Position numbers and translations under genes: made by a program
Part shown: piece by piece, positions 34,111 through 44,462 of the stretch
How the letters are laid out: each line of letters starts with the position of its first letter
Position numbering within the stretch: position 1 is the first letter of the stretch
DNA from: a virus
Taxonomy: Duplodnaviria > Caudoviricetes
Virus record (IMG/VR): IMGVR_UViG_3300033144_001106
Coordinates: 1-50,120 of that record
DNA: 50,120 nt
Direction: 5' to 3' (one strand)
Notes under the pieces: model-generated
Seen by the model: only the letters and a program-made list of their open reading frames with translations
Told to the model about the DNA's origin: nothing
The model's database searches: none

Positions 34111-34462
34111 TCTCTTGTACCTCCTCGGTACGTTGGTCTTGCTGACTAAGACAAGTTTCATCGTCATTAGTTCCATCACTCATAAGTGCTTGTAATCTAT
34201 CGTATTGATCGCTCATTACTGCCATCAGTACAGCTATCGTTGTCCTAAGTTCAGCCTTAGCTTGCTCAAGCCGGTACGCTCGCCATTGCCACAGTGCAAT
34301 GACAACTACTAAGCCACATGAGAACCACGATACCGTGGTACTCAGTGCTACATAGGCTAGCACTACATTCATTGCCATGAGTATAGTTAAGAACATGCTG
34401 CTCATACTTGACTCGATTACTGGTACTTTAAGTACCACAATCTCTTCTTCATCTTTCATCAC
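34103..34462 (-). CDS. Two-TM membrane protein
   Basis: Two hydrophobic segments plus coiled coil. Confidence 0.6.
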   Translation of the reverse strand: MMKDEEEIVVLKVPVIESSMSSMFLTILMAMNVVLAYVALSTTVSWFSCGLVVVIALWQWRAYRLEQAKAELRTTIAVLMAVMSDQYDRLQALMSDGTNDDETCLSQQDQRTEEVQEND

Positions 34463-36258
34463 TTGACTCCTTGCTTGATTACCTCAAACAACACGTTGTT
34501 TATCATTTCTGGGTCACTCAGTACCTTGCTGTTGTTATAGTATGTTACCACTGCATCCGACTGGATGCCTACACCGTACAGGTCTACGTCACCCCGTGCC
34601 TCAATGCTCTTAGCCACATACAGTAGGTTCTGGCTTGCATTACCAGCATACTGTCCCGCTGGACACCCATCACTCAGTACGATCAGGATCTTACGTGCCT
34701 CTGGTCGTGCATGTATCTGGTTGTATGCCCACATTACAGCATCAGCATCGTTGTTAGCAGAGCAGAAGCGATAGAACTTAGAGAACCTCTCGGCTACTTG
34801 GTATGGTGATACCTTGTCATTGAATGACTTGATCAACCCAATGTCACACTGTGAGTGTGCATCAGAGAAGGCAGCCAGTTGTACTGGTATCCTAAGGATA
34901 CGGTCGAACACTTGTACTAACCTGCCACTAGCATCAGCAGCTTGCTTCATCTTCTCACCTGCCATGCTACCTGACCAGTCAGTAAGGATATGGATACATG
35001 TATCCAACTCCTGCTTAGGGCTGAAGTTGTAGAAGATTTTCTTATTCCACTCACCACCATCAATGGGTGGCATACCTAGCTTGTATATGCTGCCCTTGTC
35101 TATCCTTCCGTGGTACTGTGCCTTGCTTACTCTAGTCCTTGACTTAGCTTGGATGTACCTACGTATCTGGTTGCCGAAGGTAGCTGCTGCCCTGTTGTCA
35201 GACATGAATGACTCAGGTGTGCCAATACCATACCAGTCATTACGTATCTCTGCCTTGTGCTTCTTCTGCTTAAGGTCAACCACGTTGATCAGGTGCTGTG
35301 GCATGAGTGCTACCCTACCCTTAGTGTAGTCAGTCCAGTCAATGCCTATGTTACCCGGCTTGCCATCCTTAGGTTGCCACTCGTCGTGCTCACTGAACAC
35401 GATGTCCTTCCAACTGACGACAGTGCCTTGCTGTTGTTGTACTTCACCCTCACCTTCACCCTCTTCTAGCTTATCACCTCCACCTTCACCTTCTTCTTCA
35501 CCGCCCTTACTACCTTCGCCCTCTTCGCCCTCACCTTGTTCATTGCGCTCCATGCTGTGCCCTTGTTGCCGTGTCTCCTCTAGTTCATCCTCGTCACTGT
35601 CAGGAAAGAGTCGCCTATATAAATCCACAGCTAAATCCCAGCAATCGTGCGGGTCTTTGGTTGCTTGCATCCTCTCAACGTACCCTTCCTTGACCAACTT
35701 AGTCGTCAGGTTCCTAGCTACCGAGGGCATACCAGCAAAGAACTTAGTGCGGCTAGCATTAGACATGCCATCCCACTCTAAGCGGGACAGTTGTCCCAAT
35801 GAACTGATAGACATGGGTGCTACCTGCTCCTCAGTGAGGTCATCATCCAGTTCAACCTTGCCCCACTTAGCAGTGATCTCCTTAAGTATGACTGCGTTCT
35901 GTCTACCTAAGGCGACAGCATCACCAGCATAGGCATTAGCTACCTCCCTCTCCATCCCATCGTCCTCGACGATATTGAACAGAGCGAATAGTTCTTCGGG
36001 AGTAGTCTTCTTGTCCAGTGCATTGCATATAGCAAACGCATCAGGCCTTTGGTGGTGACCACACTCATGTACCACGAACCCATGCAGCTTAGTCATTGCA
36101 TCCTCAGTTACAGGATGGTGTATTGCTGGTATGGTGATGTCCCTGCCATTAGTCATGGCTGTCCTAGCATGAGGGTCGAAGGTAAGAGTTACACCCTGTG
36201 ACCCACACCTACGTTGTATGACTGAGATCATCCGATCAATGTCTAGTACATCACTCAT
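34459..36258 (-). CDS. CobT-like VWA protein with N-terminal HExxH domain
   Basis: HECGH and N..ED...E in N-terminus; Glu/Gly linker; MIDAS DWSGS and SDG.P. Confidence 0.85.
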   Translation of the reverse strand: MSDVLDIDRMISVIQRRCGSQGVTLTFDPHARTAMTNGRDITIPAIHHPVTEDAMTKLHGFVVHECGHHQRPDAFAICNALDKKTTPEELFALFNIVEDDGMEREVANAYAGDAVALGRQNAVILKEITAKWGKVELDDDLTEEQVAPMSISSLGQLSRLEWDGMSNASRTKFFAGMPSVARNLTTKLVKEGYVERMQATKDPHDCWDLAVDLYRRLFPDSDEDELEETRQQGHSMERNEQGEGEEGEGSKGGEEEGEGGGDKLEEGEGEGEVQQQQGTVVSWKDIVFSEHDEWQPKDGKPGNIGIDWTDYTKGRVALMPQHLINVVDLKQKKHKAEIRNDWYGIGTPESFMSDNRAAATFGNQIRRYIQAKSRTRVSKAQYHGRIDKGSIYKLGMPPIDGGEWNKKIFYNFSPKQELDTCIHILTDWSGSMAGEKMKQAADASGRLVQVFDRILRIPVQLAAFSDAHSQCDIGLIKSFNDKVSPYQVAERFSKFYRFCSANNDADAVMWAYNQIHARPEARKILIVLSDGCPAGQYAGNASQNLLYVAKSIEARGDVDLYGVGIQSDAVVTYYNNSKVLSDPEMINNVLFEVIKQGVK

Positions 36259-36445
36259 CCTCGCCTCCTAGTGCGGCTAGTGCGTTATCTAACCTTATGC
36301 AATCGAAAGCTGAACAACGGTCGCCCCTCACTTTTTTCGCCGCATCAACAACAGCCTCAAGCTGTTCGATGCGCTTAAGAAAATTAGCCATTGTGATCTT
36401 GTCTATCTCTACCTTGGCCTCAAGCTGCTTTATTCTGTCACTCAT
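36251..36445 (-). CDS. Small coiled-coil protein
   Basis: RI.QLEA repeated twice. Confidence 0.55.
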   Translation of the reverse strand: MSDRIKQLEAKVEIDKITMANFLKRIEQLEAVVDAAKKVRGDRCSAFDCIRLDNALAALGGEDE

Positions 36446-36549
36446 TTTATGTCCTCGTTGGGCACATATATGCAGGAGTCATCTTCGTACACAACAAGAC
36501 AACCACAGGACAAATGAAGGATGTAGTCTATTCTAAAGTGGACATCCAT
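36442..36549 (-). CDS. Possible 35-aa peptide (MDVHFRIDY...)
   Basis: Translated manually; start and stop overlap both neighbours. Confidence 0.35.
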   Translation of the reverse strand: MDVHFRIDYILHLSCGCLVVYEDDSCIYVPNEDIK

Positions 36550-37655
36550 TACAGTTTCCTTGCAAAGACTTGGAAGTACATGTCCTTAGCAGTAGCCTTG
36601 TCATCCTTGCTCAGCTTGTCGAACCACGACAGCTTAAGGCCTTGCTCTAAGCTCGAGCATAACTCTGCCTTCTCAGTCCATGCCAGTAGAGCACGGACAC
36701 TGAACGTGGTGAGCAGTGCCTGTTGACTGAACGCTACACGTACCAGCTTGGCAAAGTCCAGCACCCCATTGATCTGATCAGTGGTCAGTCCTGTCTGCTT
36801 CTTAAGTAACCGGCGTTCTTGTACCTTAGGCAGGTACTCTATCTCAATAGATGCACCGATACGATCCAGTGTACTAGCATCCTGTACTTGAGCATCGAAC
36901 ACACCTGTCTCATCACCAGTACCACATGTGTTGTCAGTAAGGGTGTACCACCACTTGCCCTTCGGTGCTCTAAGTATGCGCTCCTCTGCGGTGCGACCCG
37001 GTGCATTGGGTAGCAGTACAGTGCGGTTGTTCTTCTCACGTAGTGACTGTAGTACCAGCGCACTGTTGTGTCGGAAGGCCTCATCTTCGCAGAAGATACC
37101 ACCATAGCGGAGACTATCGGTCAAGATAGTAGGCTCTTGCTTGATGAACATCTGCCCTTCCTCATTGTAGTCCAGTGAAGCACTACCTATGAGGTGATCC
37201 TCGCGTGTCTCATGGTTACATGACATACGCCAGAAGGGGATGAAGAATGTAGCTGCCCATTCTTGTACTAAGCATGACTTGCCAGTACCTTGCAGCCCAT
37301 GCAGTAGCGTGGTGTCACCACAGTACATAGCCATAGCATACTGTTCAACAGCAGGCTTGTTCCAGATCCAGTTAGGATCTTTAGCTGGGATGTGAAGCTG
37401 CGCTTCCTCATGCCAGTCACTAGCCTCAAACATGGGCAGTGACAGGTCGGGGATAGTCTTAGGCTTCCAGAATATAGAGCTGAACAAGACAGTACCGGGT
37501 GGTGTGTCTAGCTTAGCCACCGTAGTGATCTCGAACTTGTCAACTACCTCTGCCTCAACTATCGCGTTTGCTCCCTTCTCGGTAGCTAGGATAGCATTGA
37601 TTACATCAGCGTCGTACTTACCCTTGAGGGGTTGACCTGTTGAGTAGTTACTCAT
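36549..37655 (-). CDS. CobS/MoxR-like AAA+ ATPase
   Basis: Walker A GLQGTGKS, Walker B FCEDE, T.N..G, DASTLDR, S.R.L; adjacent to VWA partner. Confidence 0.9.
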   Translation of the reverse strand: MSNYSTGQPLKGKYDADVINAILATEKGANAIVEAEVVDKFEITTVAKLDTPPGTVLFSSIFWKPKTIPDLSLPMFEASDWHEEAQLHIPAKDPNWIWNKPAVEQYAMAMYCGDTTLLHGLQGTGKSCLVQEWAATFFIPFWRMSCNHETREDHLIGSASLDYNEEGQMFIKQEPTILTDSLRYGGIFCEDEAFRHNSALVLQSLREKNNRTVLLPNAPGRTAEERILRAPKGKWWYTLTDNTCGTGDETGVFDAQVQDASTLDRIGASIEIEYLPKVQERRLLKKQTGLTTDQINGVLDFAKLVRVAFSQQALLTTFSVRALLAWTEKAELCSSLEQGLKLSWFDKLSKDDKATAKDMYFQVFARKL

Positions 37656-37875
37656 CGTCAGTTTCCTTGCGTGTAGAGACACCATCTATACTGACCAGTC
37701 GCAGTTCAATCTCTAAGGAGGGAGGCTTAGGTGCATCCGTCCCGTTAAGTACCACCTGCAACGTGATGGTGTCGTTGTCTTGCTCAAACATCTTAGCTAC
37801 TGCTTGACGGACAAAGTCATCCATCTTCAGTTCCTCTGCTAAGCCTATGTCAGTTACTACTGCTTCCTCTGCCAT
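37648..37875 (-). CDS. Hypothetical protein
   Basis: 75 aa, RBS GGAGG. Confidence 0.55.
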   Translation of the reverse strand: MAEEAVVTDIGLAEELKMDDFVRQAVAKMFEQDNDTITLQVVLNGTDAPKPPSLEIELRLVSIDGVSTRKETDDE

Positions 37876-41168: not shown

Positions 41169-41540
41169 TTAGAATTGTGACAAGCTAAGGTATATAGGCT
41201 TGTCGTGATTGAACTTGGTGTGTACCCACAAGTCTAGCTCGTACTCCCACTCACTGAACCCATCCAGTTCAGTGGTACACAGTAGCTTGTCACTGATGTG
41301 GTAGTATGGGTCGCTACAGCTATGCCCATCTTGGGAGTACTGTAGCTCGTAGTAGTCAGACCCTCTGGGTCTGCGGTCAGTGAACTCAAGTACGATGTCA
41401 TCCGTACCCTTGAGGTGGAACAGTCTTGCAACACCCCGACTGCATAGACATGAGCTATACAGTGCCTTCATCCCCTTTATCTTATAAGGGACTGAGTGGT
41501 AGTCACCCCATCGGTGCTTGAAGCGTAGCTTCTCGTTCAT
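41169..41540 (-). CDS. Hypothetical early protein
   Basis: Start refined to 41540 (ATGA overlap). Confidence 0.55.
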   Translation of the reverse strand: MNEKLRFKHRWGDYHSVPYKIKGMKALYSSCLCSRGVARLFHLKGTDDIVLEFTDRRPRGSDYYELQYSQDGHSCSDPYYHISDKLLCTTELDGFSEWEYELDLWVHTKFNHDKPIYLSLSQF

Positions 41541-41749
41541 ACGTACCCCACTTTTGCACCCCTGTGCCATAAGACCTTGCCTTCAGGCCGCTTAGTTTTA
41601 CGACGGTAAACGTCGCACTGATGTACCATAACGGTACGTTCTATCCTCTTCGGACAGTCCATAGTAGCCTTGTCAAACAGCCACGAATCTATCGTGCGCT
41701 TGACAGTAGGCACTGCTACTGAGTGCCGAACCCAATCACGCTTGTTCAT
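41537..41749 (-). CDS. Small basic early protein
   Basis: RBS GAGG. Confidence 0.5.
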   Translation of the reverse strand: MNKRDWVRHSVAVPTVKRTIDSWLFDKATMDCPKRIERTVMVHQCDVYRRKTKRPEGKVLWHRGAKVGYV

Positions 41750-41791
41750 ACTTTGCCCTCGTTCTATGATTAAATAGGGGGACTCACGCCC

Positions 41792-42109
41792 TTAATAGCC
41801 AGTCCTCTACACCTAAGTAGCGAGCATAGATGCAGCATCCCTTGTACTGAGCAAGCTCTAAGCCGCCCAACACTAATAGGTAACGCCTTGTCCCACCCCA
41901 CTAGCATGAGGCTACGAATGTACTAGCAAAACTGTTGGACAAGACGCGGTAATGTGTGCGCCCTACCTAGTAGCAACTCCGTGCTACTAGGTGTGACGAC
42001 TCGGCTCAAGACATACCGTATAGCTATACGCTACGCTCGCCATTAACTCTTAAAGGTTAATGACTGTAGTTGCTACGGGATCTCAAGTTAGCTTGAGCTT
42101 GGCTATTAA
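41792..42109 (-). ncRNA. Candidate structured non-coding RNA (unclassified)
   Basis: Nested long-range helices with G-U pairs that work on the - strand only; no long ORF in 41750-42280. Confidence 0.55.
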
Positions 42110-42233
42110 CGTGCGGGGTACAACCCATGCCTAAGCACGTATAACTAGGAGGTCACGGTCTTACTACGTAAGATGCCCCGGACAGCACCGTGCCATAACG
42201 CTAGGCACACGGACGTAGTGGAGAACAGCCACT

Positions 42234-42262
42234 AAAAGAGGACACTCCAAAGGAGTGCCCTC
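42234..42262 (-). terminator. Intrinsic terminator-like hairpin
   Basis: GAGGGCACTCC-TTT-GGAGTGTCCTC-TTTT on - strand just after stop at 42280. Confidence 0.65.
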
Positions 42263-42279
42263 GATAGTAGCCCTATTAT

Positions 42280-42621
42280 CTAGGGTTGGAAGGAGCCAAC
42301 GGCTCCCTTGCATGAGGCTTGCTTCGCAACAACCTCATCGAACCTGCTTCGCAGGGCATAAGCTAGCTTAGTTTCGCCAGCCTTATTACGTCGTGCATAA
42401 AGCACAACCTCTTCGCCCTTATTGGTCGCATGTTCTGCGGCCTTGACGGTCATGTGAGCGAGGTAGGCCTCGTCCACTTGAACAGCCCCTTCGGGGGTAG
42501 CTGGTGCTGCTATTGCAGCGGGAGCAGCTACTGCATTAGCAGTAAGTGCCGTAATCAGGCGGTCAAAGCCTGAGTCAAGGGCATCAAGGATGTCCTTATT
42601 GCTCGTTCGTGCTGTACCCAT
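42280..42621 (-). CDS. Early protein with Ala/Pro linker
   Basis: 113 aa, RBS AAGGAG, followed by terminator. Confidence 0.7.
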   Translation of the reverse strand: MGTARTSNKDILDALDSGFDRLITALTANAVAAPAAIAAPATPEGAVQVDEAYLAHMTVKAAEHATNKGEEVVLYARRNKAGETKLAYALRSRFDEVVAKQASCKGAVGSFQP

Positions 42622-42997
42622 GTTGGTACTCCTTCGGCATGTTGCCGTTGTCTTGCATTATGGGGGTACGTCCATCGCACCCCACTCACTTCGTTCGTGG
42701 GGTGCTATGGACGACCAACACCTTCGGTGTTGTTTTCTTGCCACACTTCAGCACCTTCGGTGCTGGTGCTCACTGTCCACCCTATTAGCATAGCTAATAG
42801 GAAGATGCAAGCTAACTCAATCAACTCAGCACCTATGGTGCTGTTCTGTTGCCTTGTATACCCGCGCATCTAACTCTCCTTCGGGGCATAGCCCCGATAG
42901 TGCCGACGATTCCTCAAGTACCTAGCCTTAAGGCTAGATACTACGTGAGGTGCATAACCTACTAGCATAGCTAGTAGGACGAGTGCTTGAAGGTCGT

Positions 42998-43351
42998 TCA
43001 TGCTGCTACTCCTTTGGAGTCCCAAGCTGCGCCGCTAATTGGCGGCAAGTCCAGTGATACCAGAGGTATCTCTGTGTCGTAGTCATCAGGCACATAGTAC
43101 GCTGCCCTTACCCGAAGGGAACCTTCGGGATTCCAGTATCCCGTCAGGCTTTCAGCCTGTAACGGTGTGTCATTGTCTATGACAATGCCGAAGCGCCACA
43201 TGGCATCCCAAAGGTGTTCACTTGTAGTGAACCCGACGAGCCACTCGATTTCCTCCATCAGAGATGGAGTGTACCCAATGTCTGCCATGTCAAGGCCAAA
43301 GGCCTTATATATCATGTCCAGCTCCGCTGGACTCAGGCTATCAGCTAGCAT
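42998..43351 (-). CDS. Acidic early protein
   Basis: 117 aa, RBS AAAGGAG. Confidence 0.6.
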   Translation of the reverse strand: MLADSLSPAELDMIYKAFGLDMADIGYTPSLMEEIEWLVGFTTSEHLWDAMWRFGIVIDNDTPLQAESLTGYWNPEGSLRVRAAYYVPDDYDTEIPLVSLDLPPISGAAWDSKGVAA

Positions 43352-43532
43352 CGTTGCTCTCCTTTAGTAGCGTAGCTACTATGATTTCGTCCATGATTGC
43401 TATGCAATCGTCGTAGGTGATGACTCGTTCACATTCGATGCAATGTCCAGAGGACATCAGGTAATCACCACATCCAGAGCAAAGCTCAGGATGTATGTGA
43501 TCGGCAGAGCCGATGTGGTTGATATCGTCCAT
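43341..43532 (-). CDS. Small zinc-finger early protein
   Basis: CSGC...CIEC; start refined to 43532 after AGGAG. Confidence 0.6.
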   Translation of the reverse strand: MDDINHIGSADHIHPELCSGCGDYLMSSGHCIECERVITYDDCIAIMDEIIVATLLKESNDAS

Positions 43533-43542
43533 GTCAAATCTC

Positions 43543-43767
43543 CTAACAGTCGTAGACTGTGTCGTTGAGCCTAAGCTCCGCTTCACCGTCGAAGCTGTGC
43601 CAACTACGTTGGCGGCCAATCTCAGGGTTCCAATCCAGCTCCGCTGGACTAGCACCTAGTTGCGAATCATCTTCGATGTGCCGTTCTACTTCCTCAGCTA
43701 CGCTGAGTCCCCAAGCTTCAACGTAACCGAGGTTAGCGAAGCTAAAATACATGATCAAATTTGGCAT
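43543..43767 (-). CDS. First early gene, acidic hypothetical protein
   Basis: Start refined to 43767 after GGAG, downstream of sigma70 promoter. Confidence 0.55.
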   Translation of the reverse strand: MPNLIMYFSFANLGYVEAWGLSVAEEVERHIEDDSQLGASPAELDWNPEIGRQRSWHSFDGEAELRLNDTVYDC

Positions 43768-43862
43768 CGGTGTTCTCCATAGGTTGAGGAGGGGGATATG
43801 CCCTTTCCTCACTCCGTGAGGGAAAGGGCTATCCCCTCTCCATCTCAGCACAGCAGACCAAG

Positions 43863-43891
43863 AGTATACTCTTGGTACGTACATGTGTCAA
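43863..43891 (-). promoter_or_regulatory. Sigma70-type early promoter
   Basis: TTGACA-17 nt-TATACT on the - strand at the head of the early arm. Confidence 0.85.
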
Positions 43892-44462
43892 GCGTAGGCG
43901 CTACGCGGCGCACACAGATCCTTAAGCTATGCTTAAGGTTATGTAAGGGTTAAATTGTACAGAGTGGAAAGAAAAACAAAGACCTATGGTCTTTGGTTAA
44001 GGGGGAAATTGGTTTGCATAATCAGTGAATGAGAATCACTTACACGTTATGTAACACCACATATGGGGAAGTTAGACCATATAAGGTCGATATGACATAA
44101 GGGGGGGCGGGGGTTTACGGGCGCTTCCCTTACAGGGAAAGCCAAGGTAAATAAATCTCGGAGAAATGTTAGAACCCTCCAGCCCTTTGGTACCAGTCGA
44201 TGTTCAATCGAATGGAACTTTCTTCCATAATAACTGTCTTAAACATAAAAGCACTGATAGTTCTATACACTCCTACAGAGTGTTAAGAGTAAAAAGACCT
44301 GTTTATGCGGAGAACTACTCTATATATTAGCTAAAGCTAATATGATAGAATCATAGTAAATAACTGACAATTTCGGTAATTAGAGCCCCTAGCGGGGCCA
44401 CAATACAACCCCTCACACAGTTGAAGCTGCCAATGAGGGGTTTACTTCCTGCGCGAGACCCT

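Follow-up and report, generated by a model that had tools for sequence, protein, structure and literature searches.

A conserved, covarying core of about 185 nt as a candidate cis-acting RNA in the early operon of a phage related to the cobaviruses

An untranslated gap in the early operon of the phage was found to carry a conserved core of ~185 nt (positions 41956..42140, minus strand), recognised by homology and covariation. The window, that is, the whole stretch of DNA analysed, is a complete virus record of 50,120 bases, and all positions refer to it unless a related locus is named. We put at about even the chance that this gap holds a real, selected, cis-acting structured RNA of the early transcript, with a core smaller than the element proposed in an earlier note on the same DNA. 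That note had described a single nested fold of 320–450 nt; the minus (sense) strand is likely to specify a structured RNA, with the core as the supported part, while the larger fold was not supported. Position is the one basis on which we infer that the core acts in cis on the early transcript. The core matched no known Rfam family, and its own family is small.

The phage terminase shares ~54% identity with its counterparts in Lentibacter, Roseobacter and Celeribacter podoviruses (cobaviruses) of the Zobellviridae, and the other genes include CobS/CobT-like genes, a family A DNA polymerase, a primase and a helicase. The CobS-like ATPase and CobT-like genes are located at 34459-37685 on the minus strand (PHROG 249 and 17276), as in cobaviruses. 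A search of the phage for a T7-type RNA polymerase domain, run without a positive control, was negative, which suggests that the phage depends on the host polymerase. The minus-strand gene block extends from 43884 down to ~22800, and all neighbours of the gap are on this strand. Sigma-70-like sites were detected on the minus strand at 43891 and 44370 only, the element lying 1.6–2.1 kb downstream of them. The best of these sites (43863-43891, minus strand; TTGACA-17-TATACT, 11/12) overlaps the start of the ORF at 43543-43884, so that this start, or the ORF itself, is doubtful.

The gap is 530 nt long and free of ORFs (41750-42279), and it separates two genes of the ORF list, one encoding 113 amino acids upstream (42280..42621, minus strand) and one encoding 70 amino acids downstream (41537..41749, minus strand). 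Neither could be assigned to a PHROG or Pfam family, and Foldseek returned no match for either against the PDB at E ≤ 0.001. The AlphaFold models of the two neighbouring proteins had pLDDT values of 70.5 and 71.0, with the 70-aa protein predicted to be all-beta (pLDDT 70.5). The gap itself is non-coding. It carries at least 10 stop codons in each sense frame, no open frame is conserved among relatives, and the indels have lengths that are not multiples of three. Matches obtained by tblastx fell in several frames and on both strands, as would be expected of conserved DNA rather than of a protein. At its 3' end the gap contains the translation start region of the 70-aa gene (41750..41767, minus strand), with AUAGAACGAGGGCAAAGU ahead of the AUG. 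According to an 8-mer table, AUAGAACGAGGGCAAAGU also precedes the downstream start codon in the related loci L039 and L047, and a close variant, ACAGAACG, does so in L041 and L032.

A distant blastn comparison of positions 41400-42700 with 50,697 phage records gave no match, and a single-protein search of viral contigs with the 113-aa gene found no relative. The 29 loci collected on the basis of the terminase keep the gene order but have no more than the terminator-like hairpin of the gap in common with the window. Aligning the 113-aa protein yielded 7 related loci from viral contigs and 15 from metagenome contigs. The core occupies the same slot in metagenomic relatives, being clear in L039 (identical to L040 over the region), L041 and L046, and shortened or weaker in L047, L032 and L036; the homologues were counted as four clear and three weak or shortened. 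The core of L039 is 72.7% identical over 187 nt (E 8e-25), that of L041 was found by nhmmer with E 8e-16, and that of L046 reached 17 bits (E 0.003) with the nhmmer core profile. A covariance model (R1) built from three sequences raised L046 to 47 bits (E 1.8e-9); as the sequence-only score was 17, structure adds to the score and thus carries signal. With the same model L047 scored 15 bits (E 0.12 / 0.019), whereas L032 (7.4 bits, E 1.3) and L036 (3.9 bits, E 9.3), scored with filters off, were not significant, though at the expected places. By eye, L032 (on the same contig as L190 and L004) carries a short form like that of L047, and L036 (on the contig of L318) has the P2' and P3 parts described below.

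The core is present in one copy per genome. It is absent from the closest terminase relatives L003, L005 and L006 and from the cultured relative ICBM2 (no match better than 5.7 bits), so that the core is dispensable for this type of phage. Five pattern scans of viral contigs placed it on two contigs besides the window's own record, among the matches listed. A scan for AGTCGTC..AGGGCGCAC returned at least 116 stretches, none with the flanking motifs among the matches listed, and a terminator-pattern scan returned 10 stretches, none matched by the nhmmer core profile. The pattern GAGCC..AGTCGTC..AGGGCGC was found in 20 stretches, of which only L190 (on the L004 contig) is real, and of two patterns combining the loop with P3, one had no match and the other matched 1 stretch (L318, on the L036 contig). 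A pattern scan of genome contigs gave at least 120 stretches, all those listed being in G+C-rich bacteria and none being matched by nhmmer. In the window, L041, L047 and L032 the slot has the same order, namely the 113-aa gene, a hairpin, an untranslated gap of 226–685 nt and a homologue of the 70-aa gene, with one extra gene ahead of this homologue in L039 and L051. The feature following the core is variable: the window and L041 have the 70-aa gene, L039 has a 66-aa gene, and L046 and L036 have further RNA modules. One or two tRNA genes each were present in the relatives L037 (480-711), L032 (745-819) and L036 (863-936), ~2–2.5 kb from the 113-aa gene and on the opposite strand; no tRNA gene was found in the window.

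On the minus strand the core would fold into four parts. The first is P0, a hairpin of 6 bp (ACGUGC/GCACGU, 42135-42140/42109-42114) supported by covariation. The 5' part of its loop pairs, after a 5-nt linker (UAAUA), with the next six bases to give the pseudoknot P1 (UUAGGC/GCCAAG, 42129-42134/42098-42103; hand table). The third part is P2', a covarying long-range helix (GCUCAAG/CUUGAGC, 42092-42098/42004-42010). It shuts off an asymmetric internal loop that is conserved (42078-42091 and 42011-42016, minus strand), with CUAACUUGAGANCC (also given as CUAACUUGAGAUCC) on one side and GUAUGU on the other, and encloses a variable insert (42017-42077, minus strand) measuring 15–70 nt across loci. 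The last part is the P3 hairpin, whose base (41995-42000/41956-41962, minus strand) is the invariant GUCGUC/GGCG-C-AC, including an invariant U.G, and whose freely covarying top (41982-41992/41965-41975, minus strand) is separated from the base by an AC/AG internal loop.

Support for this structure comes from covariation. In a five-sequence alignment that was fitted to the covariance model, which favours structure, 17 of the 30 pairs in the four nested helices were changed on both sides, compared with 7.5±1.9 in shuffles (0/500), and 90.6% of cells were paired, compared with 77.2±2.2 in shuffles (0/500). When partners were slid by 1–3 columns, 23–41% of cells were paired and at most 3 pairs were changed on both sides. 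An independent alignment of 3 sequences by MAFFT, folded with RNAalifold, recovered P0, P2' and P3. P1 is kept through double changes, reading CCAGCC/GGCAGG in L041 and CUUGCC/GGCAGA in L046 (hand table), and P2' reads ACGUAG/CUACG in L046 and AGGUAG/CUACCU in L036 (hand table). P0 becomes AAGGGC/GCCCUU in L046 and either AUGUGU/GCACAU or AUGCGU/ACGCAU in the short forms.

The orientation of the genes, together with the invariant U.G in P3, favours the sense strand as the one on which the core acts; wobble pairs by themselves are insufficient, since of 139 cells the sense reading pairs 126 and the antisense reading 122. This small asymmetry would also suit an element that acts as DNA, such as a replication origin or a set of protein-binding hairpins, and covarying hairpins could be extruded in DNA too. 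Such an element is nevertheless extremely unlikely, as a long-range helix over an insert of 15–70 nt combined with a pseudoknot is hard to form in duplex DNA, the invariant U.G in the P3 base would be a C.A mismatch on the opposite strand, and neither iterons nor an AT-rich stretch was found.

The pairings from which the larger fold had been assembled all exist in the window. The outer helix, a (41792-41801/42100-42109), has 10/10 Watson-Crick pairs, helix b (41820-41829/42031-42040) has nine, helix c (41859-41865/42002-42008) six and helix d (41884-41893/41937-41946) nine; b, c and d each have in addition one A.C mismatch that becomes a G-U pair on the minus strand, as had been remarked. The cattaac/gttaatg pairing is also present (7/7), and the hairpin at 41965-41992 (11/11) proved to be the covarying top of P3. 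For the local ctcaag/cttgag hairpin, the 6/6 pairing is there in the window, but neither L046 nor L036 has a sequence able to form it (by eye), and it was discarded as the conserved form; P2' covaries instead. P2' is in fact the alternative gctcaag/cttgagc pairing that the earlier note had put forward as a switch or pseudoknot, with GCTCAAG at 42004 and CTTGAGC at 42092 both present.

What did not hold was the joining of these pairings into one nested structure. The outer helix reaches -15.5 kcal/mol in the window, a value attained by 0.7% of shuffled queries, and in L039, L041 and L046 the corresponding segment finds no partner better than shuffles. Its 5' strand overlaps the covarying strand of the pseudoknot P1, and helices b and c draw on its unconserved 3' part in the gap. 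The outer helix is thus peculiar to the window. In 60 dinucleotide shuffles of the gap, a perfect stem of at least 10 bp arose by chance in 17%, and one of 11 bp or more in 8%.

With the upstream hairpin set aside, the larger fold was also no more stable than expected by chance. For the full 530 nt, z was -3.31 (minus strand; none of 100 shuffles was as stable) and -2.28 (plus strand). Without the upstream hairpin, termed T, the remaining 480 nt gave z -1.72 (5/100 shuffles as stable) and z -1.29 (11/100), respectively, and most of the stability excess of the 530 nt comes from this terminator hairpin. Among 311 genome windows ranked after adjustment for GC, the minus strand of the region came 31st and its plus strand 173rd. 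In the same GC-adjusted scan the most over-stable part of the genome, on both strands, was the early small-ORF region upstream of the core at 42241-43900 (z -2.5 to -3.4), which exceeded the gap region studied here. Several plus-strand terminator-like hairpins are located at 42635-42843.

The gap outside the core is heterogeneous. Between hairpin T and the core lies module A (42142..42226, minus strand, with small hairpins at 42163-42219), which is shared with L042 only (77% over 132 nt by blastn) and for which a two-sequence consensus fold showed 5 of 22 pairs changed on both sides, a weak result with n=2. Beyond the core lie P4, a G-U-rich hairpin (41883..41947, minus strand) that corresponds to helix d and is followed by CCUAUUAG, and a 3' spacer (41768..41882, minus strand) containing two predicted hairpins and the 3' strands of helices a to c. 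No sequence homologue of P4 was found, and the 3' third of the gap has no detectable homologue. Counted along the gap, the positions shared with the window are 139-331 for L039, 6-333 for L041, 6-130 for L042 and 8-180 for L047. Because module A, the core and the 3' third differ in which relatives share them, the gap is a mosaic. Module A, P4 and the 3' hairpins would then be lineage-specific padding or separate modules, outside any global fold.

Such a mosaic could also be leftover sequence in a recombination hot spot, with hairpins arising by chance and serving no function. The folding energy of the gap is not exceptional, the presence of its parts differs between close relatives, and the family is very small. 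Against this, the third-codon identity of the adjacent gene between phages is 32–44%, which is near saturation, whereas the two conserved blocks of the core are 62–95% identical, so that the core sequence is under constraint; covariation is also well above the shuffled and slid controls. An absence of function is thus considered distinctly unlikely.

The element lies directly downstream of a terminator-like hairpin, as the earlier note had stated. In its extended form hairpin T spans 42227..42272 (minus strand, predicted fold) and occurs once in the window. Its central stem-loop (42262-42238, minus strand) has 11 bp with 7 G-C pairs and is followed by UUUUAG, while a lower stem (CUACU.../...AGUGG) encloses the U-run. 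A G+C-rich stem followed by a U-run is what is expected of an intrinsic terminator, here with only four U. The sequence of the hairpin is common to L003, L004, L036, L039, L041, L042, L043 and L047, and in its place L034, L050 and L049 have a hairpin of ~20 bp with no U-run (folds read by eye). Because there are only four U, and because the U-run is missing in those three loci, termination at hairpin T may be partial. The ~20-bp form favours a processing hairpin over a pure terminator. The fold predicted for hairpin T of the window, set against a ~20-bp RNase III substrate, consists of 8 + 11 bp with internal loops.

Under the preferred reading, a cis-acting core, transcription would read through the hairpin at the end of the 113-aa gene, and the core would be carried on the polycistronic early message. 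Among the sequencing runs searched, no RNA run was listed for the stretch, so that no transcript was seen, and one DNA run matched 5% of its sequence words. Hairpin T and the core would jointly act as a punctuation module that sets off the first five small genes from the ~19 kb of genes that follow. A factor such as a ribonuclease, the ribosome or RNA polymerase would recognise the conserved loops, and this recognition would set the processing, stability or translation of the downstream message. A leader processed by an RNase III-type enzyme is one plausible candidate. RNase III processing hairpins are located between the early genes of phage T7, where each site is a single hairpin. Hairpin T resembles them as a long irregular hairpin (~19 bp with the lower stem) between early podovirus genes, but unlike the T7 sites it is followed by a pseudoknotted core of ~185 nt with conserved internal loops.

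The motif CUAUU recurs in the gap and could be a processing site or a module boundary. Three copies are present on the minus strand of the 3' spacer (41873-41880, 41791-41800 and 41769-41779). In the gaps of the window and its relatives it occurs at 2.75/kb, compared with 0.8–0.9/kb, a ~3-fold enrichment on the sense strand (18 sense and 6 antisense copies). It is usually C-rich sequence followed by CUAUU(A/U)A, just past the 3' strand of a helix. A repeated phage promoter of the form CCUAUU..AUAGAACG was also considered; the full motif occurs once in the window and the half motif gave 17 matches against 10.1±3.5 expected, and the idea was dropped.

The succession of structured modules and then CUAUU on the sense strand is likewise what would be seen if a stable RNA were cut from the early transcript between hairpin T and a CUAUU motif, the core then acting in trans, alone or together with the hairpins beside it, on a target in the host or the phage. 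RNAs that bind a partner typically combine conserved internal loops and variable peripheral stems, and the gene downstream is not constant between loci. No promoter-like site was found between hairpin T and the core in the window, the two are just ~10 nt apart in L039, and no terminator was found after the core. A stand-alone RNA acting in trans is accordingly regarded as unlikely, though worth keeping in mind.

The earlier note had also suggested an antitermination RNA analogous to put of phage HK022, which would modify the host RNA polymerase in cis. The putL and putR RNAs of HK022 lie near a promoter, ahead of terminators, and occur twice per genome. Like put, the core is a cis-encoded structured RNA in the early operon of a phage that, with no T7-type RNA polymerase domain found, would rely on the host enzyme, and its short forms (L047, L032) consist of two adjacent stem-loops in ~95 nt. 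Unlike put, it follows rather than precedes the only strong terminator-like hairpin, starting at 42140 right after the stem-loop at 42262-42238; it is 1.6–2.1 kb from the promoter-like sites, occurs once per genome, is absent in close relatives and contains a pseudoknot and a long-range helix. Terminator-like sites downstream of the element were not in excess (10 found against 10.9 expected). The put-like reading was not borne out by these observations and is considered very unlikely.

Comparison with known RNAs agreed with the suspicion of a novel RNA in the earlier note, as the families of Rfam 15 gave 0 matches at the gathering threshold in the whole window. In 13 related loci Rfam identified only tRNAs, elsewhere in the loci, and matches at E ≤ 10 were unrelated, weak and inconsistent. 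The pseudoknot, the invariant internal-loop bases and the variable stems would suit a new class of RNA, either a self-cleaving ribozyme or a riboswitch-like ligand sensor. In the pistol ribozyme an A/U-rich linker leads to a strand that pairs back with the loop of a short hairpin. The first half of the core, with a hairpin loop that pairs downstream and then the linker UUAAUAG, is presumably comparable to this arrangement; the order of helices differs, however, and pistol is much smaller. The resemblance to pistol was not upheld, as its model (RF02679) found nothing at E ≤ 10 across the 50-kb genome, with 3 candidates scored, and no Rfam ribozyme or riboswitch model matches. A riboswitch is further disfavoured by the ~190 nt between the core and the next start codon in the window, the lack of a consistent expression platform and the differing downstream genes. 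Taken together, a catalytic or ligand-sensing RNA seems quite improbable.

The most far-reaching possibility, which we consider rather unlikely, is that the core represents the first known example of a class of pseudoknotted phage RNAs with an activity of their own, either self-cleaving or binding host RNA polymerase or a ribonuclease. In Zobellviridae-type podoviruses that lack a polymerase of their own, it would serve to set immediate-early expression apart from later early expression. The core offers a concrete handle on the timing of early expression in these phages, in which no RNA polymerase gene was found, and it could be tested in vitro without a cultured host. Should it be catalytic or bind polymerase, it would represent a new RNA class; should it merely be a signal for processing or stability, it would be one more among many candidate phage leader motifs. 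More than 10,000 candidate viral RNAs, as covarying intergenic motifs from IMG/VR contigs, have been described (Fremin et al., 2023; PMC10690425). Those motifs are 29–151 nt long, and at least 3 IMG/VR regions at E < 1e-6 were required. The core is similar to them in kind, as a covarying intergenic RNA, although the pattern scans placed it, among the matches listed, on two contigs besides the window's own record; some of the published motifs might overlap it or its surroundings, for example at hairpin T or P3. A literature search on noncoding RNA in Zobellviridae and on cobavirus terminators or promoters found nothing relevant.

The slot between the two early genes holds further features in the relatives. 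A second conserved RNA module, absent from the window, was observed there in L034 (3520-3830), L050, L036, L046, L049, L045 and L039 (2290-2395), and had no Rfam match. It consists of a closing helix, a 3'-side internal loop (GAGUGUAAAG) and an inner CAAGUAGC, followed by CCUAUU, and its 8-mer GUGUAAAG was found in 7 of the 14 gap sequences, three of which contain it twice. In L047 a short hydrophobic ORF (MFSMILVAVVLAILL..., 583-655) with the start region AGAACGUGAGG is located between the short-form core and the 70-aa homologue; in L032, by eye, AGAACGUGAGG directly drives the 70-aa homologue. The gene after the RNA region in L036 (3955-4461) has a hydrophobic start (QGLTLLELLIGLVIASILL) which, by eye, resembles the N-terminus of a type IV pilin.
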